Part shown: one piece after another, positions 1,504 to 12,584 of the stretch
How positions within the stretch are numbered: the first letter of the stretch is position 1
Layout: each line of letters opens with the position of its first letter
Assembly: GCA_965212165.1 (NCBI GenBank)
Contig: OZ243096.1
Coordinates: 2,850,048 to 2,874,047 of the forward strand
Origin: Balneolaceae bacterium
GTDB taxonomy: Bacteria; Bacteroidota; Rhodothermia; Balneolales; Balneolaceae
Length of the DNA stretch: 24,000 nt
Reading direction: 5' to 3'
Notes under the pieces: generated by a model
Databases searched by the model: none
What the model saw: only the letters and a program-made list of their open reading frames with translations
What the model was told of the DNA's origin: nothing
Program-made: the position numbers and the translations under genes

Positions 1504-2334
1504 ATGAAGAAGATTATTGCACTTACTTTTTTCTCTTTTCTAATTTTCATAGATTCTTTTGCTCAAGTAACTATAGCGCCAACAAACCTCTTTATAGACA
1601 GTAATTCTAGGTTTGGTACTTACATGGTTGTCAATGGATCTAATCAAGTTCAAGAAATATCAATTGATTTTTTCTTCGCATATAGTTCTACTGATGAATT
1701 TGGAAATAGAACCATCATTAGTGAGGATTCAGTAAAAGCTGTTCAATATTCCGTTGCTGAATCCATAAGAGCTTTTCCTCAAAATTTTTCACTTAGTCCT
1801 AATCAAAGACAGGTTGTTAGAATTAGAGTAAATATGCCAAATGATGTTCCTGATGGAACTTACTGGTCTCGTATAAGAACTGCATCTACACTACAAAGCC
1901 CTCCTATTGAATTGCAGAATTCTGATGCTGTATCAGCTAGTGTTGGTGTTAAAGTTGAACAAGTAACAGGTTTATTCTACAAAAAAGGAACTGTCTCTAC
2001 GGGTATTGAGATTGTAGATATAAATACAAATTTTGAAGAACCAGATAACATATTGGTTGTTCAAACACAGCATTTAAGAACTGGAAATTCTCCTTTTTTA
2101 GGGTCCATTTCTACATCGATTCTTAACAGTTCAGGAGAAGAAGTTCGAAGAGGGTTTGTATCTACAACGATTTATTTTGATGGAATTCATAAACAAGAAT
2201 TTGAAGTAGAAAATTTACCTTCAGGCACATATACTGCAAAAGTAACTTTTGAAACGAGTAGAAGTGATGTGTCAAATAACGATATTATTAAGGCCCCCAC
2301 TGTAACTAAATCTACAACTTTTACCATTAGGTGA
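1504..2334 (+). CDS. Periplasmic PapD-like pilus chaperone candidate (two-domain Ig-like protein)
   Basis: Signal peptide MKKIIALTFFSFLIFIDSFAQ. The mature N-terminus VTIAPTNLFIDSNSRFGTYMVVNGSNQVQEISIDFFF resembles the PapD_N pattern (v.l..tRvif......sl.v.N....p.l.q.w). A later SPNQRQVVRIRV resembles the P..re.l....v strand. The position between subunit genes and the large OM protein fits. The equivalent of the PapD Arg8 anchor appears to be Asn, so the protein is divergent. Confidence 0.5.
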   Translation: MKKIIALTFFSFLIFIDSFAQVTIAPTNLFIDSNSRFGTYMVVNGSNQVQEISIDFFFAYSSTDEFGNRTIISEDSVKAVQYSVAESIRAFPQNFSLSPNQRQVVRIRVNMPNDVPDGTYWSRIRTASTLQSPPIELQNSDAVSASVGVKVEQVTGLFYKKGTVSTGIEIVDINTNFEEPDNILVVQTQHLRTGNSPFLGSISTSILNSSGEEVRRGFVSTTIYFDGIHKQEFEVENLPSGTYTAKVTFETSRSDVSNNDIIKAPTVTKSTTFTIR

Positions 2335-5300
2335 TCTCCAAGTCTTTAAAGATATCCAATACATTAATCTCAATATTTTTCAGCCTCCTATTCTTATGTA
2401 CCCCTATATTTGCACAGAATAATGAAAATGATGAATTTGAGGTTTTCCTTTCTTTTCGTCATAGGGGAGTAATTGACAATCTTGTAGTCTCTTATTATAA
2501 AAGTGATGAATTTTTTCTACCACTTAATGAACTTTTCAATGTCTTTGAAATAGAGATTAATTCAAACGGTTTACAAACAAATGGTAATTTTTCTGCCAAT
2601 CAAATACCTTATTCTATTGATTTAGAAAAACAAATTATTCAATTTGGAAACGAAACATTCACACTCACTAAGGAAGATTTCTTAGTTAAAGAACTAGATA
2701 GCTATCTAAGAATTTCTCGTTTTAGTGAAGTTTTTGATCTTAATTTTGATGTTGACTTTAACAGCCTATCTCTTAGTCTACAAACAGATGTAGAACTACC
2801 TGCTGTAGCAAGAACTCTTCGAAATAGAACTAGAAGGATTACCGATAGATCAATAGATGAGGCGTTTCACCCTCTGCTTCAAAATTCATCGAAAAATTTT
2901 ATTGATCTAGGTTTCCTAGATTATAGTCTATCATCAAATATTAGGACGGATCAAACTAGCTATAATTACAATTCATCAATAGGAATGAAGATTGCAGGTG
3001 GTGATCTTCAAGGCTCATTTTTTGGAACATATACTAACCAATTTTCAACCTTTTCCACTAATAGATTTAGGTGGCAATTTATTAATAGGAATAGCAAACT
3101 ATTAAGTAGAGTAATTATTGGGCAAACATCAATGGATGGAGTTTTACCAAACTCTTATACAGGTATAAGAATTACAAATGAACCTATTGAAGCTAGACAA
3201 GTATTTGATGAATTTGAAATTGAAGGATCGACTTTTCCGGAGTCAGAAATTGAGCTTTATGTTAATAATTCATTAGTCGATTTCAGCACAGCTGATGATA
3301 TTGGGAACTACCGATTTCTAACCCCAATAAGCTATGGTTCATCACAACTCAGTCTTAAGATTTTTGGGCCAACTGGACAAGTTTTGGAGCAAAGAAAAAG
3401 AATTCAAGTCCCTTTTACATTTATTCCAGAAGGAGAGCTTAACTATGTAATAAATGCTGGTAGACTTGATAATCCAATTATAGGTTCAACAGTACGTAAT
3501 AATGTAATTCAAGCCAATACAGGTTATGGAATAACCAATTGGCTTACTACTAAAGTTGGAGTAGAGTATTATGAAAATTTAAATACTACAAATTCTACCA
3601 TTTTTACTTCATTGGTTTCAGCGAGATTTCTATATAACTATATTTTAAACCTGCAGGCAGTTTCTAATTCATTCTATCGCGCTTCAATTAATGCTGTTTA
3701 CCCAAATGCAGCAAGTGTTAATCTTGGTTATACCGATTATATCTCAAAAGCTTCATTACTTAATACTGCTGGAAATGATAAACAAATTAATGCAAGTTTA
3801 TTTTATCCATTAAAATTTTTAAAGATACCACTTAACTTTAGAGTTAGTAGTTTTTCACGTTATAGAGATAATAATGTATCAACAACTTTTAGAACAGATT
3901 TAAGTGTAAGACTTCAGAAATTCAATTTCAGATTTGGATATAGTGATAGACTTTTTGATTCTTATAACCCATTTAACTCAACAGATGCATCTGCTATTAT
4001 ATCTTCTGCTACATACAATGTGTCTAGAAATCCTACTATTCCTAGCATCTTAAGGGGAGCTTTTTTTAGAACTCAAATGAGATATTTTCCTAGTCGAAAT
4101 AGTATAGATTCATTTGAGTTTTTATACTCACGTAGCCTGTTAGGAAATGGAAGATTACAACTTGTTGCTGGTCGAAATTTTACAACTGGGCTAAATAATA
4201 TCCGTTTCAACCTTATTTTTGACTTTAAAAAAGTTAGAACTAATTCTACATTTATTAGAAATAATAACTCATTTAGCTCAACACAAAACATTAGAGGCTC
4301 TATTGGTTACGATTCAAATTATAGGAACTTTATTTTGACAAGCCGTGATCAAGTTGGAAGATCTGGAACTGCTATCAAGTTATTTGTAGATAATAATAAT
4401 AATAATGCTTTTGATGAAGGCGATGATTCAATAGATGATGGTGGTTTTAGAATAGGACGTTCAGGTTCTTCCTCCATAAAGAAAAATGGAATTATCTATT
4501 ATACACAAATGCAGCCATATTTTAGATATAATATGGATATGAATAAAGGGTCAATTCAAAACCCAATGCTCGTACCAAATCTTGATAAGTTCTCTATTGT
4601 TACTGAACCCAATAGTTTTAAACAAATAGAAATTCCATTTTACATGTCCGGAGTAATCGATGGGAATATCCAAAGAATTTTTTCTACTGGAAAGCAAGAA
4701 GGAATTGGAGGGTTAAAAGTAACTTTAAAATCAACAGACAATGATTTTATAAAAGAACTCAGAACTTTTTCAGATGGTAGTTTTTATGAATATGAAGTTC
4801 CTCCTGGTGATTATGAACTATTTGTCGATCAGAACCAATTAGACTTATTAGGTGTTAAATCAAATCCTGTTAAATTAAATTTCACAGTTAATGCTATACC
4901 TGAAGGTGATTTCGTAGAGGGCTTATCATTAATACTACTACCAACTGAGGAAACTGAAGAATCTGAATTAGATTCATTAATTATTCAACCTCTAACACTT
5001 TCTGAAGTTGGAATTGAAATACGTAATAGCCCGGAAATACTAGTTCTAGAACAAAAACTTAATGAAGATGTGAGCAGAGCACTTAGAATGTTGATCTTGG
5101 CTCAAAATGCATTCTATGCTCAAGATATTGAGGGTGCTTTGGATAATATTAATCGTTCATTAGAATTCTTTAAGACTGCTCAAGGATATGCTTTAAAGGG
5201 AAGTATACTGTATTTTAAGGGTGATAGAGTTGAGGCTGTAAATAGCTGGAGAATGGCATTACGCTACGATCCCGACATTTACATTCCAACCTTAGAAGAA

Positions 5301-5336
5301 TTGGATCAAAGAGTTACTATTAGTTCTTCAGACTAA
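2331..5336 (+). CDS. Large outer-membrane usher-like protein with two C-terminal beta-sandwich-like domains and a terminal TPR-like module
   Basis: GTG start overlaps the chaperone stop (GTGA at 2331-2334). Signal peptide MISKSLKISNTLISIFFSLLFLCTPIFAQ. About 650 aa are Asn/Ser/Tyr/Phe/Arg-rich with alternating patterns typical of a beta-barrel. An SdrD-B/prealbumin-like segment follows (FVDNNNNNAFDEGDDSIDDGGFRIG, about 4365-4500). A CarboxypepD_reg-like segment follows that (GVIDGNIQRIF...GLKVTLKS...TFSDGSFYEYEVPPGDYELFV, about 4650-4905). Then comes an acidic linker (PTEETEESELD) and a TPR-like end (5061-5333). The usher call rests on gene order and architecture, not on a recognised usher motif. 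Confidence 0.5.
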   Translation: MISKSLKISNTLISIFFSLLFLCTPIFAQNNENDEFEVFLSFRHRGVIDNLVVSYYKSDEFFLPLNELFNVFEIEINSNGLQTNGNFSANQIPYSIDLEKQIIQFGNETFTLTKEDFLVKELDSYLRISRFSEVFDLNFDVDFNSLSLSLQTDVELPAVARTLRNRTRRITDRSIDEAFHPLLQNSSKNFIDLGFLDYSLSSNIRTDQTSYNYNSSIGMKIAGGDLQGSFFGTYTNQFSTFSTNRFRWQFINRNSKLLSRVIIGQTSMDGVLPNSYTGIRITNEPIEARQVFDEFEIEGSTFPESEIELYVNNSLVDFSTADDIGNYRFLTPISYGSSQLSLKIFGPTGQVLEQRKRIQVPFTFIPEGELNYVINAGRLDNPIIGSTVRNNVIQANTGYGITNWLTTKVGVEYYENLNTTNSTIFTSLVSARFLYNYILNLQAVSNSFYRASINAVYPNAASVNLGYTDYISKASLLNTAGNDKQINASLFYPLKFLKIPLNFRVSSFSRYRDNNVSTTFRTDLSVRLQKFNFRFGYSDRLFDSYNPFNSTDASAIISSATYNVSRNPTIPSILRGAFFRTQMRYFPSRNSIDSFEFLYSRSLLGNGRLQLVAGRNFTTGLNNIRFNLIFDFKKVRTNSTFIRNNNSFSSTQNIRGSIGYDSNYRNFILTSRDQVGRSGTAIKLFVDNNNNNAFDEGDDSIDDGGFRIGRSGSSSIKKNGIIYYTQMQPYFRYNMDMNKGSIQNPMLVPNLDKFSIVTEPNSFKQIEIPFYMSGVIDGNIQRIFSTGKQEGIGGLKVTLKSTDNDFIKELRTFSDGSFYEYEVPPGDYELFVDQNQLDLLGVKSNPVKLNFTVNAIPEGDFVEGLSLILLPTEETEESELDSLIIQPLTLSEVGIEIRNSPEILVLEQKLNEDVSRALRMLILAQNAFYAQDIEGALDNINRSLEFFKTAQGYALKGSILYFKGDRVEAVNSWRMALRYDPDIYIPTLEELDQRVTISSSD
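4392..4406 (+). repeat. (AAT)5 trinucleotide repeat encoding Asn5 inside the usher-like gene
   Basis: Read directly: gat aat aat aat aat aat gct. It is in frame, so slippage would change the Asn count rather than the reading frame. Confidence 0.9.
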
Positions 5337-5405
5337 TTCTTTTTTCATCTTAATAACAAATTAAATACATCTACAGCACTTAGATTGGTAATAGCTGATA
5401 CTTTT

Positions 5406-7178
5406 ATGAAGCATATCTTTCATAGTATTATTGTTCTCCTCTTTATGTCTGCGAATTTATTTTCACAGTCTAACGCTTCAAATGCATCTAATTCTCAATC
5501 CTTAGAGCTTAAAATCTCTTCTCTTGAGCAAAGCTATGACTCTCAAGTTTATCTGCTTTTATCAAATTATTTTGATCGTAAAAAGTTTTTTGTTGATGTA
5601 AACATAAATGCTGAGTTTGTAGATGAAACCGTAGAGTCTACTCAAAACCAAGTTATTCAGAATAGACCTGATAACTTGATGATGCCGGGCCTCCCTTTTC
5701 TACCTCAAGAAAATATTAGAGCAAATACAGGTGCCCAATCTCCTCAAACAGTGGTAAATCAAAGTACCATTAGAACCCTGAGGCTTGTAAATATTAATAT
5801 TAGTATTTACGCCGATACTTCTTTTTCGGTACAAGAAATTCAATTTATGAGCTTATTAACTGGAATTGCTGCTAAGACCAATGACGCACGTGGTGATGAG
5901 GTAACAATAGCTCAAATTCCTATCCCTACTGTTGGTACTGTTGACCCTATTCCAATTATTCAAGCTCCCTCAGAGCCTGTAAGTATTCTCGCCTCTTTTA
6001 GATCTTATATACCAGGTTTTGTACTTTTAATGCTTTTTGGTGCGATCATGTTCTTATCAAGGATTTTTAACAAACCAGAAGATCAGGTGTCCTCTTTACA
6101 GCAAAGAGAAAGTATTAAACATGATATTTCGATAAGTGATTTTGGGCGCCCAATGGAACAAGTTCTTGTCAATAGTTCCGATGCTGGAAGAGATATCTCT
6201 ATAGAGATTGACGAATTGATCAATAGCTTCTTCAATAAATCACAAGAAATTGCTCTTTTATTTGAGTATTGGTTAGATGAAAACAAAGAAGAAGGTGCTT
6301 TTAAAGCTGCTGAAATAATCGCTTGTGTAGACAAACAATTATTGAGAGCCATTAAAAATGATCTCCAACCTGAGAACTTAGAATTAATTACTACAGCCTT
6401 AGAAGACCTTGCACCAATGATGTCGGAAAGAAAGAGTTCCGTAATAAGAAGCTTTAATTCTATTCTTAGAACTGGAAATAAAACCAGTCTTACTTCCAAG
6501 AAAAATGGCCATATAAATTTATTCAAATTTCTTGACCATATTTCAGATGCTCAGATCGTAGATTTATTAAATGATGAGGGTTATCAAACAGGGGCTTTAA
6601 TAGTAGATTATTTACCTGATGAAAAAGCAGCTCGTGTGTTAGATAGAATTGATAAAGTACGCAGTGCTAATATTATGTTTAAGATGACTACCATCAGTAG
6701 TATTCCTTATCAATTACAAAGTGAGATTTCTTCAAAGCTTTTTGATAAAGCGATGGACTTAAAAGACAAAGAGAAAGAACAACAATTAGGTGCTGAAAAT
6801 ATTCTTCCACTTCTTGATAAACTACCTCTAAGTGAACAACAAGCTTATATAGATCAATTAAAAGCTACCAATTCCGTTGTTGGTGAAGTTGTTCAACGAC
6901 AGTTTATTACCATTAATCAAGTGTTAACTTTAACAGATGATATTATAAAAGAGGCTATCCAAGATATTGATACTTCTACCCTCTTAGATGCTTTACTTGG
7001 CTTAGATCAAAAACTAGTTGATAAATTCCTTTCCGTACGTCCAAAAAGAGAGCAACGTCTTATTCGTTTAGAACTTGATGAATTAAAAGACAAGCCACAA
7101 AAAGATACGAATGAAGCGAAATCTGAAATTATGAAAAGAATTAGATTGACTGTTAAGAAAAGTCATTCTGCAACATAA
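5406..7178 (+). CDS. Membrane protein combining a FliF/YscJ-like periplasmic ring motif, a TM helix and a complete FliG-like (N/M/C) cytoplasmic region
   Basis: The ORF track gives 5385..7178 from a TTG; the ATG at 5406 yields MKHIFHSIIVLLFMSANLFSQ (signal or anchor). The periplasmic part ends IRTLRLVNINISIYADTSFSVQEIQFMSLLTGIAAKTNDARGDEVTIAQIP, like the FliF pre-TM2 motif (...RGD.v.V). TM helix IPGFVLLMLFGAIMFLSRIF lies at 6009-6068. LLNDEGYQTGALIVDYLPDEKAARVL resembles the FliG_M pattern EHPQTiAliLsyL.p..AA.vL. ALLGLDQKLVDKFLSVRPKREQRLIRLELDELKDKPQKDTNEAKSEIMKRIR resembles the FliG_C pattern ALKGasdELkeKifkNMSkRAa.ll.deLe.mGPVrlkDVEEAQ..I...iR. Confidence 0.75.
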   Translation: MKHIFHSIIVLLFMSANLFSQSNASNASNSQSLELKISSLEQSYDSQVYLLLSNYFDRKKFFVDVNINAEFVDETVESTQNQVIQNRPDNLMMPGLPFLPQENIRANTGAQSPQTVVNQSTIRTLRLVNINISIYADTSFSVQEIQFMSLLTGIAAKTNDARGDEVTIAQIPIPTVGTVDPIPIIQAPSEPVSILASFRSYIPGFVLLMLFGAIMFLSRIFNKPEDQVSSLQQRESIKHDISISDFGRPMEQVLVNSSDAGRDISIEIDELINSFFNKSQEIALLFEYWLDENKEEGAFKAAEIIACVDKQLLRAIKNDLQPENLELITTALEDLAPMMSERKSSVIRSFNSILRTGNKTSLTSKKNGHINLFKFLDHISDAQIVDLLNDEGYQTGALIVDYLPDEKAARVLDRIDKVRSANIMFKMTTISSIPYQLQSEISSKLFDKAMDLKDKEKEQQLGAENILPLLDKLPLSEQQAYIDQLKATNSVVGEVVQRQFITINQVLTLTDDIIKEAIQDIDTSTLLDALLGLDQKLVDKFLSVRPKREQRLIRLELDELKDKPQKDTNEAKSEIMKRIRLTVKKSHSAT

Positions 7179-7185
7179 CTTTAAG

Positions 7186-7710
7186 ATCGACCACAAAAGT
7201 TACATATTACTCCTTCTGCCGATTCTATTCATTTTTATAAGCTGTAGAGGATCGAATCAACTTTCACAATCAAACTCACAAGAACAAATTGCTTCTAACG
7301 AAGATGTAGCCAATTCTACAGAAGTTCCTGTTCAAACACGTGAAGATAGCGCTTTGGCTAGAAGAAATGCGTTAGTCGAAGTTTATAAAGATGAACTGAA
7401 CGAAATTTATAGAGCAGATGCTAATGGTATCATCTCCTATTATATACTAGCTCAACAACGCTTTTATAATGGAGATTATCAGAATGCACTTATTTACGCA
7501 AATAGGGCCGCAAATATCAAAGAAAATGCTGATATATTAGCTTTAAAAGGTAGTATTTACTTAGGATTAGGATTGAATGAAAACTTTGTTGCAAATTGGA
7601 GACAAGCTCTAGAGTTAGACCCTGACGTTCCTCTCCCAATTTCACCATATATTATTCAACAATTACAATTGAACGGATTAATTGATGCAAACCTAAAAAA
7701 AGCTTTTTAG
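7186..7710 (+). CDS. Lipoprotein with a TPR-like module paralogous to the C-terminus of the usher-like protein
   Basis: The ORF track gives 7354..7710 from a TTG, and that is the conservative call. The frame is open from 7150 and encodes a textbook lipoprotein signal (..KIDHKSYILLLLPILFIFISC|RGSNQ) followed by a low-complexity linker. There is no ATG, GTG or TTG before 7354. The start is tentatively placed at the ATC at 7186. The stop TAG at 7708-7710 is firm. The TPR-like part (7423-7653) is YILAQQRFYNGDYQNALIYANRA...ALKGSIYLGLG...ANWRQALELDPDVPLP. Confidence 0.55.
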   Translation: MDHKSYILLLLPILFIFISCRGSNQLSQSNSQEQIASNEDVANSTEVPVQTREDSALARRNALVEVYKDELNEIYRADANGIISYYILAQQRFYNGDYQNALIYANRAANIKENADILALKGSIYLGLGLNENFVANWRQALELDPDVPLPISPYIIQQLQLNGLIDANLKKAF

Positions 7711-7722
7711 GTAAGATTACTG

Positions 7723-8520
7723 ATGAAAACATCCATACTAAACATATTAAGCTTTCTAGTTTCTATTGTAATCCTTATATGGGGATCAGTGCTTGTGATG
7801 GGGTTTGCCGAATATAATCTAATCCCTCCTATTTATGACTTTTTGAATATCCCTAGTTTAGCTATTGTATTTGGCGGCATTTCAGCTAGTGTATTTATTA
7901 GCTATCCATTTAAACAAGTTGTAACTGCTTTAAGAGCGAGTATGCGTCTTTTTTCTCATAGTACCATCACCGATGAAGTACTTGAACGTGATATTGATTT
8001 AATTTTGGAGTGGCAAAAAAAAATTAATACCAATAAGATTCAAGCCGTGGCAACTCTTAGTCAGCAGTATGAAGATAAATTTGAGGGTTATCTATTTTCC
8101 GTACTTGATACCAATTATAGTAACGAAGAGCTTCGTGAGTTAGGAGAAATAAACATAACTGAGAATTACACTCGTCAACAACAAATTACTCAAATCATAT
8201 CAAGTATGGGTAAAACATCTCCTGTTTTTGGTATGCTTGGAACTCTATTTGGCTTAATTGTTATTCTCTCCGGTTTTAGTGAAGTAGAGTCTTTGTTAAC
8301 AGGATTAGGGGCTGCTTTAATGACCACTCTTTACGGTATTTTAATTGGGAACTTCGTTTTTACCCCAATGGCAAAAAAAATGGAAAGTACGGCTGCTTTA
8401 CAATATTTTAGAGAGAAACTTATTCTTGAAGGTATAATCCTAATTGAAGAACATAAAACTTCTCTACAGATATATGACCGCCTTCAAGCACATATGAGAA
8501 GAAATAAGTATACGATGTAG
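7723..8520 (+). CDS. MotA/PomA-like proton-channel stator subunit (4 TM helices)
   Basis: N-terminal pair of TM helices, including the MotA-like PSLAIVFGGISASVFISYP. A cytoplasmic loop of about 100 aa follows. Then comes the MotA/TolQ/ExbB signature SPVFGMLGTLFGLIVILSGF ... LGAALMTTLYGILIGNFVFTPMAKKME. The 12-nt gap to the upstream gene suggests co-transcription. Confidence 0.85.
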   Translation: MKTSILNILSFLVSIVILIWGSVLVMGFAEYNLIPPIYDFLNIPSLAIVFGGISASVFISYPFKQVVTALRASMRLFSHSTITDEVLERDIDLILEWQKKINTNKIQAVATLSQQYEDKFEGYLFSVLDTNYSNEELRELGEINITENYTRQQQITQIISSMGKTSPVFGMLGTLFGLIVILSGFSEVESLLTGLGAALMTTLYGILIGNFVFTPMAKKMESTAALQYFREKLILEGIILIEEHKTSLQIYDRLQAHMRRNKYTM

Positions 8521-8542
8521 ATCATTACTAGATACTTAAGAT

Positions 8543-10279
8543 TTGAAAGAAAACCGTATAAATAACTCCTATTCACTCTATCCAAAAGCCGCTGTTGAGG
8601 ATTTAGATGATGATAGTTGGCAAGTTAGCTACCTTGATATTATTACTATTATACTTGGCTTTCTTATAATACTTCTCTCCATTTCTCAAATTGCAAAACC
8701 TGAATTTTCCTCTCTTTCTACCGTATTTGGCAATTCTTCTGATAAAACTGAATTCATTACAACTCCTATTGAGGAAATTCAAGAGGAACTTGAATCTCTT
8801 TTACGAACGCAGATTGATGAAGGTAGATTAATTGTTTATAGAGATTTAAATGATATCCGAATCCGTTTAAAAGGCGATGATTTTTATAGTTCTGGTAGTG
8901 CCGATTTACAGGGTGAAGGATTAGATTTATTGAATCATGTGATACGAGCTTTTCAACAGACAGAGTACTCAGATTTTAATATCGAAGTTGAAGGACATAC
9001 AGATAATGTTCCTATTAGAACGGCCGGGTTTTCATCTAATTGGGAACTATCTACAGCAAGAGCATCAAACGTCGTCAAATATTTCGACCGCATGGGCCTA
9101 GAGCAAGAACGACTCAAAGCTTCAGGTTATGCAGATTCTAGACCCTTAGTTCAACTTGATTCATTCGGTAATCCTTTCGCTGCATCAAAAGAACAAAACA
9201 GAAGAATAGTTTTAAGATTGTACTACACTTCTGAAGGCCTAGAGAAAAGGGCAATTCAGCAAGCCCTTGCAGATAATCAAGAAGAGCTTATAAACGCCGA
9301 TGTTACTACTCCTGAACCTGACTCACAAACAGACCTAATTGCACAAGAATTACTTGCAATAAGTGCTTCTAACAATAATGAGAAGATTCCAGCTATTCCT
9401 GAAACAGTGGAAGAAGCTCCTACTCCTGTATTACAAGATGATCCAATTGAAGAAGTTGATCCAGTTCCAACTTCTGTTCCAGAACCTTTAAATTCAAATG
9501 AATTACCTAATATACCTTCCTTCCTAGATGGAAATATATCATGCAGTTTCATTATTCAAGTTGGTAGCTTCCAATCACTATCTTCTGGCTTTCAAGTTGC
9601 TAATAATGCAAAAATCCAAACAGGTTTAGATTTTGAGGTTGCTTCAAATGGCCGACTCTATTCAGTTCGATCAAACCCAACATCATCATTTTCTGAAGCT
9701 TTAACTTATCATAATGAAGTTAAAACGAAACTAAATGATTCAAATGTTGGGCTCATACATCAATGCTATGAAGGTGAACAAGAAATACCGTCAACACTAC
9801 AGTATCAAATTCAATTTGGAGCCTTCCAAAGTCAAGAAAATGCACTCAGCTATACAATTAGATTAGATAAGGAGTATCAGATTCAAACATATATGAATCG
9901 TCGATCCGAGACTTATAACATTGTAGCAGGTCCTTATGAAAGTAGAGAACGTGTATTGAGTCAACTTAGATCGTTTAAAGAAAAAGGTGTAAATGAAAAT
10001 ATCTTTATAAAACCGATTACTGAAAGTACATCCGACTATAAATATGCTTATCAATTACAACTGGATTCATTTAACTCAATTAATGAAGCACAAATTGTTT
10101 CAACACGAATAGCTGAAACATTAGGGATAGTTTCAACAGTTGCTAGATCTACTGATGGAACCTATCTTCTCTTAACAGATAGAACTTCTAATTGGGATGA
10201 AACCATTTCAAATTACGAACGATTTAAGTCTAGAGTACCTAGTTCAACTCCTGTCATCTATTTTCTAGAGTATATATAA
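8543..10279 (+). CDS. MotB-like stator subunit with an OmpA-type peptidoglycan-binding domain, a Pro/Glu linker and three C-terminal SPOR-like repeats
   Basis: TTG start. The TM segment SWQVSYLDIITIILGFLIILLS carries the conserved channel Asp (GAT at 8636-8638). OmpA_C motifs are present (VEGHTDNVPI...SNWELSTARASNVV...GYADSRP...NRRIVLRL, about 8825-9223). The linker TTPEPD...EAPTPVLQDDPIEEVDPVPTSVPEP follows. Three SPOR-like units lie at about 9542-10267 (FIIQVGSFQS...LYSVRSNP; YQIQFGAFQSQENA...YNIVAGPYESRE; YAYQLQLDSFNSINEA...YLLLTD). Confidence 0.85.
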   Translation: MKENRINNSYSLYPKAAVEDLDDDSWQVSYLDIITIILGFLIILLSISQIAKPEFSSLSTVFGNSSDKTEFITTPIEEIQEELESLLRTQIDEGRLIVYRDLNDIRIRLKGDDFYSSGSADLQGEGLDLLNHVIRAFQQTEYSDFNIEVEGHTDNVPIRTAGFSSNWELSTARASNVVKYFDRMGLEQERLKASGYADSRPLVQLDSFGNPFAASKEQNRRIVLRLYYTSEGLEKRAIQQALADNQEELINADVTTPEPDSQTDLIAQELLAISASNNNEKIPAIPETVEEAPTPVLQDDPIEEVDPVPTSVPEPLNSNELPNIPSFLDGNISCSFIIQVGSFQSLSSGFQVANNAKIQTGLDFEVASNGRLYSVRSNPTSSFSEALTYHNEVKTKLNDSNVGLIHQCYEGEQEIPSTLQYQIQFGAFQSQENALSYTIRLDKEYQIQTYMNRRSETYNIVAGPYESRERVLSQLRSFKEKGVNENIFIKPITESTSDYKYAYQLQLDSFNSINEAQIVSTRIAETLGIVSTVARSTDGTYLLLTDRTSNWDETISNYERFKSRVPSSTPVIYFLEYI

Positions 10280-10311
10280 AAAAAGCTTCCTGATATTCTC
10301 AAGAAGCTTTT
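10278..10311. terminator. Hairpin terminator shared by the convergent MotB-like and pdhC genes (stronger for the minus strand)
   Basis: AAAAGCTTCCTGA (10281-10293), loop TATTC, TCAAGAAGCTTTT (10299-10311), with one internal mismatch. On the minus strand the hairpin runs into a T7 tract (A run at 10278-10284 on the plus strand). On the plus strand only TTTT follows. Confidence 0.6.
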
Positions 10312-10331
10312 CATAAAATGTAGAAATTTCT

Positions 10332-11579
10332 TTAAAGTAGCATTGAAAGTGGATTTTCAATTAAATTCCTAACCGTGTTCAAAAATTGAGCTGCTTTTGC
10401 TCCATCTACAACTCTATGATCACTTGATAAAGTAACTTTCATTCTTTTACCCGGAACAATTTCACCATTCTCAATTACAGGTATATCTCTAATTGCACCA
10501 ACAGCAAGAATACAAGCATTTGGTGGATTAATTATTGCTGTAAACTCTTCAATCCCAAACATTCCAAGATTACTTATAGTAAATGTACTCCCTTCCATTT
10601 GGTCGGGTTGTAATTTTCGATCACGAGCAAGACCTGCTAGTTCACGTGTTTCTGCAGAAATTTGAGATAAGCCTTTTTTGTCAACATGATTTATAACAGG
10701 CGTCATTAAGCCTTCATCAATTGCTACTGCGATTGCAATATTTACGTCTCCATGCTCCATAATTACATCATCATGCCAAGAGCTATTAATTGCTTGATGT
10801 CGCGTTAGAGCAACAGCACAAGCTTTAACAACGATATCATTAAAACTGATCTTAACATCATTTGCATCATTCATTGATTTTCTAGCTTCAAAAGCAGCCT
10901 TCATATCAATGTCGATGGTTTCGTAAAAGTGAGGATTAGTAAATTTACTTTCTGAAAGTCTACGAGCAATAACTTTTCTCATTTGAGAAACCTTTATTTC
11001 TTTACTTTCAAGACTATCAAATGTTGGTGCTGGAGTAGATGCTGTTGCTACAGGTTTTGTTAGTCCAGAAGATGAACCTGCTTTGAAATCTTCAACATCT
11101 TTTTTAATAATTCTACCTTCAGGTCCTGAACCATTAACACCTGATAAATCAATACCTTTATCCTCAGCAATTTTCTTAGCTAGAGGTGATGCTTTTACTC
11201 TTCCATTATCTGATGAAGAGCTTGAAGAAGATGAACTTTCTTCCTTTACGGGTGCACTAGAAGTTTCCTGTTTAGTATTTTCAGTTTTTTCTGGCATAGA
11301 TGAAGCCTCATCTCCTTCAAGAAGTGCAGAGATATCTTCACCTTCTTCTCCAACTATAGCAATAATACCACCCAATGGAACGGCATCGCCTTCACCGGGA
11401 ACAATTTTTAAAATAGTTCCTCCATCAAAAACCTCAACATCCATAGTGGCTTTATCGGTTTCGACTTCCGCAATAATATCCCCAGCTTCTACTTTATCGC
11501 CTTCTTGTACATTCCATTTAGCAATAACCCCTTCTTCCATGGTATCGCTGAGTTTGGGCATTTCAATCTTAATTGCCAT
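10332..11579 (-). CDS. pdhC: Dihydrolipoamide acetyltransferase, E2 component of pyruvate dehydrogenase
   Basis: Lipoyl domain MPKLSDTMEEGVIAKWNVQEGDKV..AEVETDKATMDVE. Ser-rich linker. Subunit-binding domain SPLAKKIAEDKGIDLSGVNGSGPEGRIIKKDV. Catalytic DHRVVDG near the C-terminus. Confidence 0.95.
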   Translation of the reverse strand: MAIKIEMPKLSDTMEEGVIAKWNVQEGDKVEAGDIIAEVETDKATMDVEVFDGGTILKIVPGEGDAVPLGGIIAIVGEEGEDISALLEGDEASSMPEKTENTKQETSSAPVKEESSSSSSSSSDNGRVKASPLAKKIAEDKGIDLSGVNGSGPEGRIIKKDVEDFKAGSSSGLTKPVATASTPAPTFDSLESKEIKVSQMRKVIARRLSESKFTNPHFYETIDIDMKAAFEARKSMNDANDVKISFNDIVVKACAVALTRHQAINSSWHDDVIMEHGDVNIAIAVAIDEGLMTPVINHVDKKGLSQISAETRELAGLARDRKLQPDQMEGSTFTISNLGMFGIEEFTAIINPPNACILAVGAIRDIPVIENGEIVPGKRMKVTLSSDHRVVDGAKAAQFLNTVRNLIENPLSMLL

Positions 11580-11600
11580 AGTGTGCTTTATTGAGTGATT

Positions 11601-12584
11601 TTAATTTCTGTATGTAACTTGATTTACGGCATCAATAACCTGCTTAGTACTTGGGTACCAAGCATCAAATAATTTTTTTGAAAATGGGGCATTCACATCT
11701 GGAAGTGTCACCCTTTGTACTGGTGCATCCAAGTAATCAAATGCATCTCGCTGTATTAAAAATCCAACTTCAGATGCAAATCCAGCAAATGGATGAGCTT
11801 CATCAACTACTACACAGCGATTCGTTTTCTTGATGGATTCAATAATTAAAGGTAGATCAAGAGGTTTAACTGTTCTAGGGTCAATAATCTCACATTCAAT
11901 ACCATCTTTGGCAAGTTGCGTTGCTGCCTGAACTGCTAAATGATACATTTTACCATGTGCAACAATAGTAACATCACTACCTTCACGTTTGATTTTACCC
12001 TTCCCTATTGGGATGATGTAATCTTCATCATCAGATACTGTTCCTTTTAACCCATACATCTGCTCAGATTCCATAAATAGAACTGGACTGTCGTCACGTA
12101 TAGCAGATTTCATCAATCCTTTTGCGTCATCTGGTTCTGAAACGTATATAACTTTGAGTCCAGGAAATTGTGCATACATTGAATCGTATGCTACAGAGTG
12201 AGTTGCTCCCAATTGACCAGCAGAAGCATTTGGACCTCTAAAAACGATTGGGCAATCAGCTTGTCCACCTGTCATGTACTTTACTTTTGTAGCATGATTA
12301 ATGATCTGATCTGCAGCCAAGACTGCAAAGTTGAAAGTCATAAATTCTACAATCGGACGGAGACCTTGCATTGCAGCTCCAACAGCTATTCCAGCAAAAC
12401 CTAACTCTGATATGGGTGTGTCAATAACTCTCTTAAATCCATATTTATCGAGTAACCCTTCAGTTACTTTATAAGCGCCGTTATATTCAGCTACTTCTTC
12501 ACCCATCACAAGCACACGGTCATCACGACCCATTTCTTCGTCTATTGCGTGCTTTATTGCTTCTCTAAATTGTAATTCAGCCAT
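11601..12584 (-). CDS. pdhB: Pyruvate dehydrogenase E1 component, beta subunit
   Basis: Typical transketolase-like E1-beta sequence (EAIKHAIDEEM..D..V.VMGEEV..Y.GAYKVT.GL..KYG..RVIDTPISE.GFAGI.VGAA). It lies between the E1-alpha and E2 genes. Confidence 0.95.
   Translation of the reverse strand: MAELQFREAIKHAIDEEMGRDDRVLVMGEEVAEYNGAYKVTEGLLDKYGFKRVIDTPISELGFAGIAVGAAMQGLRPIVEFMTFNFAVLAADQIINHATKVKYMTGGQADCPIVFRGPNASAGQLGATHSVAYDSMYAQFPGLKVIYVSEPDDAKGLMKSAIRDDSPVLFMESEQMYGLKGTVSDDEDYIIPIGKGKIKREGSDVTIVAHGKMYHLAVQAATQLAKDGIECEIIDPRTVKPLDLPLIIESIKKTNRCVVVDEAHPFAGFASEVGFLIQRDAFDYLDAPVQRVTLPDVNAPFSKKLFDAWYPSTKQVIDAVNQVTYRN

Follow-up and report, generated by a model that had tools for sequence, protein, structure and literature searches.

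A TPR module shared by a predicted outer-membrane usher and a small lipoprotein in a rotor/stator gene locus of a Balneolaceae bacterium

Introduction

The textbook example of secretion without an energy source at the outer membrane is the chaperone-usher pilus. Classical ushers of the FimD/PapC type end at the second of their C-terminal domains, which lie in the periplasm. Here, we describe an usher-like protein that differs in this respect, encoded in a stretch of 24,000 nucleotides (nt) of contig OZ243096.1 from a marine Balneolaceae bacterium (referred to as the window; window positions are used throughout). Behind its C-terminal domains this protein continues with a linker and a tetratricopeptide repeat (TPR) module, the place of which is taken by three SPOR repeats in sister proteins, and the module is co-inherited with rotor/stator genes. 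A related copy of the module is found in a small predicted lipoprotein encoded on the other side of the adjacent FliF/FliG-like gene.

Several described systems resemble parts of this arrangement. The Agl-Glt system of Myxococcus is an envelope-spanning machine with periplasmic helical-repeat proteins and a MotAB/TolQR-like motor; to our knowledge it contains neither a FliG-like rotor nor an usher, and the comparison is one of analogy only. The pilotins PilF, PilW and Tgl are small TPR lipoproteins that act on the outer-membrane pore of a fibre system, but they contain some six TPRs, and the pore protein on which they act includes no paralogue of them, whereas the lipoprotein described here has two TPRs and also occurs where there is no usher-type pore gene. 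CpoB (YbgF) of the Tol-Pal system is likewise a periplasmic TPR protein encoded together with an ion-driven, MotAB-like motor (TolQR), an OmpA-like wall binder and a TolB-type protein; the motor found here, however, is of the flagellar MotA/PomA kind and is accompanied by a FliG-like rotor protein. In flagella, PflA/PflB, FlcA/FlcB, MotC/MotK and MotX are periplasmic scaffolds rich in TPR or Sel1 repeats that bridge ring and stator (PMC13023049). They share with the present system the periplasmic helical repeats and are encoded with, or act on, MotAB-type stators and the ring around FliF. However, they are long multi-repeat proteins of true flagella, whereas the present module comprises two repeats on a lipid tether, occurs in a genome that lacks FlhA and hence a flagellum, and has a copy fused to an usher; with no FlhA match and no family-specific match to the flagellar scaffolds, the likeness is an analogy of role. 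A search of the full-text literature retrieved no description of a TPR-tailed usher, nor of a FliG/MotAB cassette that includes an usher or this TPR lipoprotein.

Homology of the two TPR modules

The features that bear on the module are the following.

2331-5336, + strand: predicted FimD/PapC-type outer-membrane usher of 1001 amino acids (aa) with a C-terminal TPR tail (AlphaFold2 (AF2) fold, Foldseek)
4950-4997, + strand: flexible linker of the usher, aa 874-889 (model confidence, pLDDT, below 50; no secondary structure in the AF2 model)
4998-5321, + strand: TPR tail of the usher, module copy U, aa 890-997 (module hidden Markov model (HMM) E 1.5e-45; AF2)
5385-7178, + strand: FliF/FliG-like protein of 597 aa (Pfam FliG_N, FliG_M, FliG_C)
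7186-7710, + strand: small TPR lipoprotein L1 (probable ATC start at 7186; lipobox cysteine at 7243-7245)
7246-7395, + strand: low-complexity tether of L1, ~50 aa
7396-7671, + strand: TPR module copy L1 inside the lipoprotein (module HMM E 9.1e-46; Pfam TPR_8 E 6.1e-7)

BLASTP alignment of the usher tail (5061-5336) with the lipoprotein (7354-7710) gave 30 identities over 87 ungapped positions (34%, E 3e-13). The Smith-Waterman score of this pair was 114, while 5000 shuffles yielded a mean of 25.0 (standard deviation 4.7) and a maximum of 50 (z = 19), and no shuffle attained the real score. The identity of about one third that an earlier note on this DNA had estimated by eye was thus borne out, also against the shuffled controls which that note had proposed as a check. 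When the whole genome (one contig of 3.34 Mb, 98.7% complete) was searched by tblastn, the significant matches were the two segments and a third copy at C1:1236860-1237114 (E 1e-8 to 1e-12), and the next-best TPR-like match had an E value of 0.027. Since the three copies are the sole significant mutual matches in the genome, their similarity is specific and not a generic TPR resemblance.

As delimited by the HMM, the homologous unit spans ~95 aa (~5043-5321 in the usher and ~7396-7671 in the lipoprotein) and is somewhat longer than the segments first noted. Two canonical TPRs form its centre; they are preceded by a lead-in helix and followed by a DPxIPxP turn with a capping helix, and these flanks outside the TPRs are conserved as well. 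The description of the module as TPR-like in the earlier note proved correct: the lipoprotein matches Pfam TPR_8 above threshold (29.6 bits against a cut-off of 25.7), a profile of 13 module sequences matches consensus TPR proteins in the PDB (best E 1.5e-31), and the repeats are 34-residue helix-turn-helix units that fit the TPR consensus. In the usher tail, Pfam TPR_2 gives a sub-threshold match at aa 950-982. A profile search of 1.84 billion representative sequences was dominated by long multi-TPR proteins, and in this search matches in a single stretch over the full module length are the informative ones. Sequence searches of Pfam, NCBIfam and the PDB returned no named family beyond generic TPR for the tail or the lipoprotein, and none for X367, a protein of a second cluster described below.

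The third copy belongs to L2, the TPR lipoprotein of a second, usher-less rotor/stator cluster in the same genome. U, L1 and L2 each came out as one clade when 38 modules of 16 genomes were placed in a maximum-likelihood tree (support 98/89, 96/89 and 95/82, respectively). On sequence grounds, the three are old paralogues that have been kept apart, with no recent gene conversion. The modules are the best-conserved parts of their host proteins: across 12 related loci the usher tail has a mean identity of 72% compared with 55% for the usher body, and among L1 orthologues the module has 70% compared with 34% for the 60 aa before it.

The usher and its C-terminal tail

An AF2 model of the usher built on 83 homologues (pLDDT 84.3) contains an N-terminal domain (36-151), a barrel with an inserted plug (191-661) and two beta-sandwich C-terminal domains (666-871). 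A linker modelled at low confidence (874-889) leads from there to six helices (890-997), mostly with a pLDDT of ~90. This tail has two lead-in helices, one short and one long, then two TPR helix pairs, the DPDIYIP motif and a capping helix; in the model, 933-946 is paired with 950-963, followed by 966-979 and the cap at 988-997. In a Foldseek search of this model against the PDB, the top 19 matches were FimD/PapC structures (E 5.7e-29 to 8.5e-10, up to 944 columns aligned). The predicted parts and their order are those of FimD/PapC ushers, and pilin-like and chaperone-like genes lie upstream; however, sequence identity is ~12%, and Pfam Usher (PF00577) does not match the 1001-aa protein even at E 10. 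One usher homologue (P0117) scores 24.5 bits against the PF00577 cut-off of 27.1. Fold and gene context therefore support the assignment of the protein as a predicted FimD/PapC-type usher; the sequence model does not.

Because the tail follows the C-terminal domains, which are periplasmic in FimD/PapC, the TPR tail is placed in the periplasm on a flexible leash. The suggestion that a TPR tail after two beta-sandwich domains is a non-classical usher ending agrees with both the AF2 model and the Foldseek result. The protein database supplied 120 usher homologues, of which 63 have a TPR module at the end, 44 have three SPOR repeats there and 13 have neither. Usher homologues and module proteins carry the database names 'hypothetical' or 'TPR repeat protein'.

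Some ushers of 1065-1133 aa carry two TPR modules in tandem (L115, 9001-14870; L116, 1-16229). Their loci begin with a PATR-repeat protein of ~3,670 aa, followed by small subunits, chaperone, usher, FliFG, TPR lipoprotein, MotA and MotB, and one of the records is labelled Sphingobacteriaceae. Two tandem modules on one usher would be compatible with multivalent docking on a repeating structure.

Linkage of the modules across genomes

To assess the linkage of the two modules, 151 genomes of the order were surveyed, 107 of which contain the usher. A TPR-tailed usher was found in 52 genomes. All but one of these (51; the exception is G355) have an L1-type module on the same contig, 1-3 kb downstream of the usher and separated from it by a FliF(/FliG)-like gene. 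By contrast, none of the 53 genomes in which the usher has another ending shows an adjoining module or FliFG gene, with G367 being ambiguous since its contig ends. This is the opposite of the absence or unlinking of the modules in homologous loci that the earlier note had named as a possible refutation, and the position of the modules on either side of the FliF/FliG-like gene, which it had pointed out, is retained.

The full order (pilins, chaperone, TPR-tailed usher, FliFG, L1, MotA and SPOR-bearing MotB) is present in 10/10 congeners, in another genus and in two other families. It was also found in all ten loci of the window's kind (cluster 1) from named public records, including Gracilimonas tropica DSM 19535 (L040). 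Records of related loci are labelled Balneolaceae, Balneola, Gracilimonas and Aliifodinibius; the search that retrieved them used an alignment of three sequences and reaches close relatives only. Each of the six SPOR-tailed usher loci that were read ends after the usher, without FliFG, L1 or MotAB.

One record labelled Roseivirgaceae (L069) encodes a FliFG protein 79% and an usher tail 67% identical to those of the window, values far above those seen elsewhere in the order outside the family. Misbinning probably explains the label, which we do not take as a sign that Cytophagales have the system.

Exchange and co-divergence of the usher tail

In sister ushers of 1170-1570 aa (L095-L100, Gracilimonas and relatives), three SPOR repeats replace the TPR module and no motor genes follow. 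In the TPR-type loci, the triple SPOR sits on MotB instead of on the usher. SPOR domains are cell-wall-binding repeats. In a tree of 112 usher bodies, TPR and SPOR tails were interleaved, and well-supported branches force at least 12 changes between them. One SPOR-type usher body shows 79% identity to a TPR-type body from its own genus, but only 71% to another SPOR-type body. The simplest reading of these sequence patterns is that the 3' end of the locus, tail included, has been repeatedly exchanged by recombination. As stand-alone ushers of the same family carry three SPOR repeats at this position, we infer that the C-terminal position of the usher is an exchangeable periplasmic anchoring slot.

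An origin by in-frame insertion or deletion was also considered, in which the SPOR-tailed usher would be a TPR locus deleted from the tail to the OmpA domain of MotB. This model was rejected for recent time, because the SPOR tails of usher and MotB are 22-27% identical while the usher bodies are 54-79% identical.

The divergence of the tail was compared with that of its neighbours in 21 loci. For pairwise distances, the correlation of the tail was 0.73 with the periplasmic domain of the FliF-like protein, 0.78 with the FliG part, 0.73 with MotA, 0.77 with MotB and 0.66 with L1, as against 0.53 for the chaperone and 0.32 for the tail's own usher body.

The rotor/stator cassette and its reduced forms

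Directly downstream of L1, the window encodes a stator.

7723-8520, + strand: MotA/PomA-type stator channel subunit (Pfam MotA_ExbB; best NCBIfam matches MotP, MotA and PomA)
8543-10279, + strand: MotB-type stator subunit with plug, OmpA-like domain and three C-terminal SPOR repeats (Pfam MotB_plug, OmpA, SPOR)

No match to FlhA/FHIPEP was found in the whole genome, and the rotor/stator genes are therefore not flagellar in the usual sense. The FliF/FliG-like protein consists of a signal peptide, a periplasmic domain, one transmembrane helix and the FliG N, M and C domains.

The second cluster of the same genome (cluster 2; C1:1233616-1238665) encodes a FliF/FliG-like protein (609 aa), X367, the TPR lipoprotein L2, MotA and MotB, in an order preserved in 24/24 cluster-2 loci from public genomes. 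It contains no usher, and its MotB has no SPOR repeats. L2 has 204 aa and an ordinary ATG start. X367 is a secreted protein of 367 aa; its model is of moderate confidence (pLDDT 66.7), and we tentatively assign it a TolB-N/LpoB/PelC-like domain and a small outer-membrane barrel ending in ...VIRF. In a distant Bacteroidota family (f34; L090-L092), the order is an X protein (~372-392 aa), a TPR protein, MotA, MotB and the FliF/FliG-like protein. The f34 TPR proteins (238-329 aa) and L2 have in common a short additional segment at the N-terminus, which is missing from L1, and in L090 (1-13211) the cassette stands directly after an open frame of 2,633 aa. Since the TPR lipoprotein gene lies directly upstream of motA in usher-less cassettes as well, the lipoprotein is a core member of the non-flagellar rotor/stator cassette, with or without an usher.

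The FliF-like periplasmic domain is conserved in cluster 1, cluster 2, f34 and reduced variants. A loop between variable stretches, LPGLPF(L/V/I)P (LPGLPFLP in the window, aa 107-114, ~5700-5725), is conserved in the cluster-1, cluster-2 and reduced FliF-like proteins, and its version in the distant family is LPGVKGF. One might speculate that this loop is a peptide ligand of the TPR modules.

Reduced loci were found in two lineages (L105 of G384, 3847-8129; L106 of G331, 7261-11643), where the TPR-tailed usher, a FliF-like protein and L1 form a trio followed by unrelated housekeeping genes, with no MotAB nearby. The FliF-like protein of these loci is intact and has 270-290 aa comprising the periplasmic domain and the transmembrane helix, without FliG domains, and no other FliG-like match was found in the genome of G384. 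As the trio persists without FliG and without an adjacent stator, the FliF-like periplasmic domain is favoured over MotB as the partner of the modules.

Proposed role of the modules and alternative explanations

We propose that U and L1 are paralogous periplasmic docking modules that tie outer-membrane parts to a FliF-like ring, a reading to which we assign a probability of about 0.5. The module belongs to the non-flagellar FliF/FliG-MotA/MotB cassette, with its U copy fused to the usher via the flexible linker of ~16 aa. Both modules would dock on one shared periplasmic partner, most likely the periplasmic domain with which the FliF-like protein would form its ring. Via its lipid anchor, L1 would connect this ring to a membrane, and the usher tail would take an equivalent site on the ring, with the pilus pore held over the rotor/stator complex. 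As far as the comparison of loci goes, the tail appears to be the best candidate for a physical link between pore and motor. The idea of a periplasmic adaptor, raised in the earlier note, has gained strong comparative support from co-occurrence, SPOR replacement, divergence and retention of the FliF-like protein; the binding partner proposed here comes from the same comparisons.

Several points weigh against this proposal. Related genomes are not independent, and the contrast between 51/52 and 0/53 overstates the number of events. The correlations of the tail distances (0.66-0.78) do not separate the FliF-like N-terminal domain from MotB or MotA as the partner. The absence of MotAB in G384 and G331 holds for the locus, the rest of each genome not having been searched for distant MotAB genes. 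The membrane in which L1 would be anchored may be the outer or the inner one. Charge complementarity between U and L1 was considered and rejected, all module classes (U, L1 and L2) being net acidic.

One alternative is that the modules are a stator scaffold, binding periplasmic MotB and recruiting or holding stators, so that the tail would bring the pore to the stators and not to the ring. Periplasmic proteins rich in TPR or Sel1 repeats (PflA/PflB, FlcA/FlcB, MotC/MotK, MotX) have this function in elaborated flagellar motors. TPR proteins that bridge the E-ring and MotB are known (PMC13023049), the correlation of the tail with MotB is 0.77, and the lipoprotein gene is always directly upstream of motA in cluster 1 (by 12 nt in the window), cluster 2 and f34. 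However, the loci of G384 and G331 lack MotAB and retain the tail and L1 next to nothing more than a FliF-like periplasmic protein, and G040 also has no adjacent MotAB. Apart from the general TPR pattern, the modules are not related in sequence to PflA, MotC and similar proteins. We regard a stator scaffold as unlikely. Somewhat less likely still is a pairing of the modules with each other, in which U and L1 would form a heterodimer derived from an ancestral homodimer and L1 would serve the usher as pilotin or anchor in the manner of PilF, PilW or Tgl. Paralogous domains often retain an ancestral self-interface, U and L1 strictly co-occur, ushers with two tandem modules exist, and there is a weak NCBIfam PilW match. 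However, this match scores 23 bits where the cut-off is 154, the net charge of both modules is acidic, and the lipoprotein is equally conserved in the usher-less cassettes of cluster 2 and f34; piloting an usher is therefore not its ancestral job.

It is also conceivable, though improbable, that the modules bind a short peptide outside the rotor and stator, such as the termini of a pilin or chaperone or a cell-wall enzyme, and tune fibre assembly without mechanical coupling. Short peptides in extended form are the typical ligands of TPR grooves, a peptidoglycan synthase is regulated by the TPR protein CpoB of the Tol-Pal system, and the cluster-2 neighbour X367 has a tentative TolB-N/LpoB-like domain. 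Two observations speak against such a client: the tail tracks the motor cassette (0.73-0.78) and not the usher body or the chaperone, and the module is present in cassettes without pilins or chaperone. A chance or generic TPR resemblance without shared function has a negligible probability and is counted as refuted. TPRs are common and the module profile also matches thousands of unrelated TPR proteins, but the alignment score (z = 19), the mutual matches found nowhere else in the genome, the similarity extending into non-TPR flanks, the separate orthologous clades across families and the strict synteny all speak against it.

A more far-reaching and tentative version of the docking proposal is that the modules are the mechanical coupling of a new envelope machine, in which a FliF/FliG ring turned or gated by MotAB is joined to a chaperone-usher pore. 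Secretion of the surface fibre would in that case be driven, gated or rotated by ion flow, an undescribed use of half a flagellar motor, with the tail as an evolutionary plug by which any usher of this family could be connected to or disconnected from the motor. More generally, we may be dealing with an usher with an exchangeable docking tail, embedded in a possibly new machine: a whole lineage of ushers appears to have acquired a docking domain whose presence and absence follow those of an ion-driven rotor/stator cassette. Should the module prove to be the physical link, it would provide a small, defined and deletable handle on the question of whether a flagellar-type motor powers or controls a pilus. 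It would also illustrate the wiring of a motor module to new outputs through domain fusion, and mark the TPR lipoprotein as a core accessory of the FliG-MotAB system, a non-flagellar one that occurs in marine Balneolales and in certain other Bacteroidota.

The lipoprotein and the organization of the locus

The signal peptide of L1 ends in ...ILFIFISC, and a hydrophobic stretch, a small residue and the cysteine are present in 23/23 L1 orthologues that were read, supporting its prediction as a lipoprotein with signal peptide and lipobox and, with it, the placement of its module in the periplasm. The module is the only folded part of L1, with the variable tether of ~50 aa between the cysteine and the module. 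Searches of Pfam and NCBIfam gave no CpoB, TolA-binding, PflA or MotX family match for the lipoprotein. It is not a member of the PilF/PilW family: TIGR02521 (PilW) scores 23.1 bits against a cut-off of 154, the protein has two TPRs, and there is no secretin in the locus.

The reading frame of L1 is open from 7150 and contains no ATG, GTG or TTG before 7354. An isoleucine codon (ATC, ATT or ATA) five codons before a 'YIS' motif is conserved in 12 orthologous loci, and several orthologues have in-frame stops one to four codons upstream of it. In the window this putative ATC start (7186) is located 8 nt past the FliFG stop codon, and other genera have ATG there. These sequence features point to a conserved non-canonical AUH start for L1.

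Upstream of the usher, three further genes were identified.

89-667, + strand: pilin-like subunit 1, kept upstream of chaperone and usher in all related loci
831-1352, + strand: pilin-like subunit 2 (Pfam DUF4402, E 9.7e-6), upstream position kept in related loci
1504-2334, + strand: chaperone-like periplasmic protein of 276 aa, directly upstream of the usher in all loci (53-61% identity)

No Pfam chaperone match was obtained for the product of 1504-2334, and its putative chaperone role is deduced from gene position. The order on the + strand is thus two pilin-like genes, chaperone-like gene, usher, FliF/FliG-like gene, TPR lipoprotein, MotA and MotB, with intergenic gaps of 8-70 nt among the last five genes; the motA start lies 12 nt past the lipoprotein stop codon. 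A strong terminator-like hairpin (1369-1403; 15 pairs followed by a T run) is located between the DUF4402 subunit gene and the chaperone gene. In classical pilus operons, a hairpin after the subunit gene is the arrangement that gives an excess of the major subunit. No further terminator-like site was found on the + strand between 1403 and 10279, and a hairpin at 10280-10312 closes the gene block after MotB.

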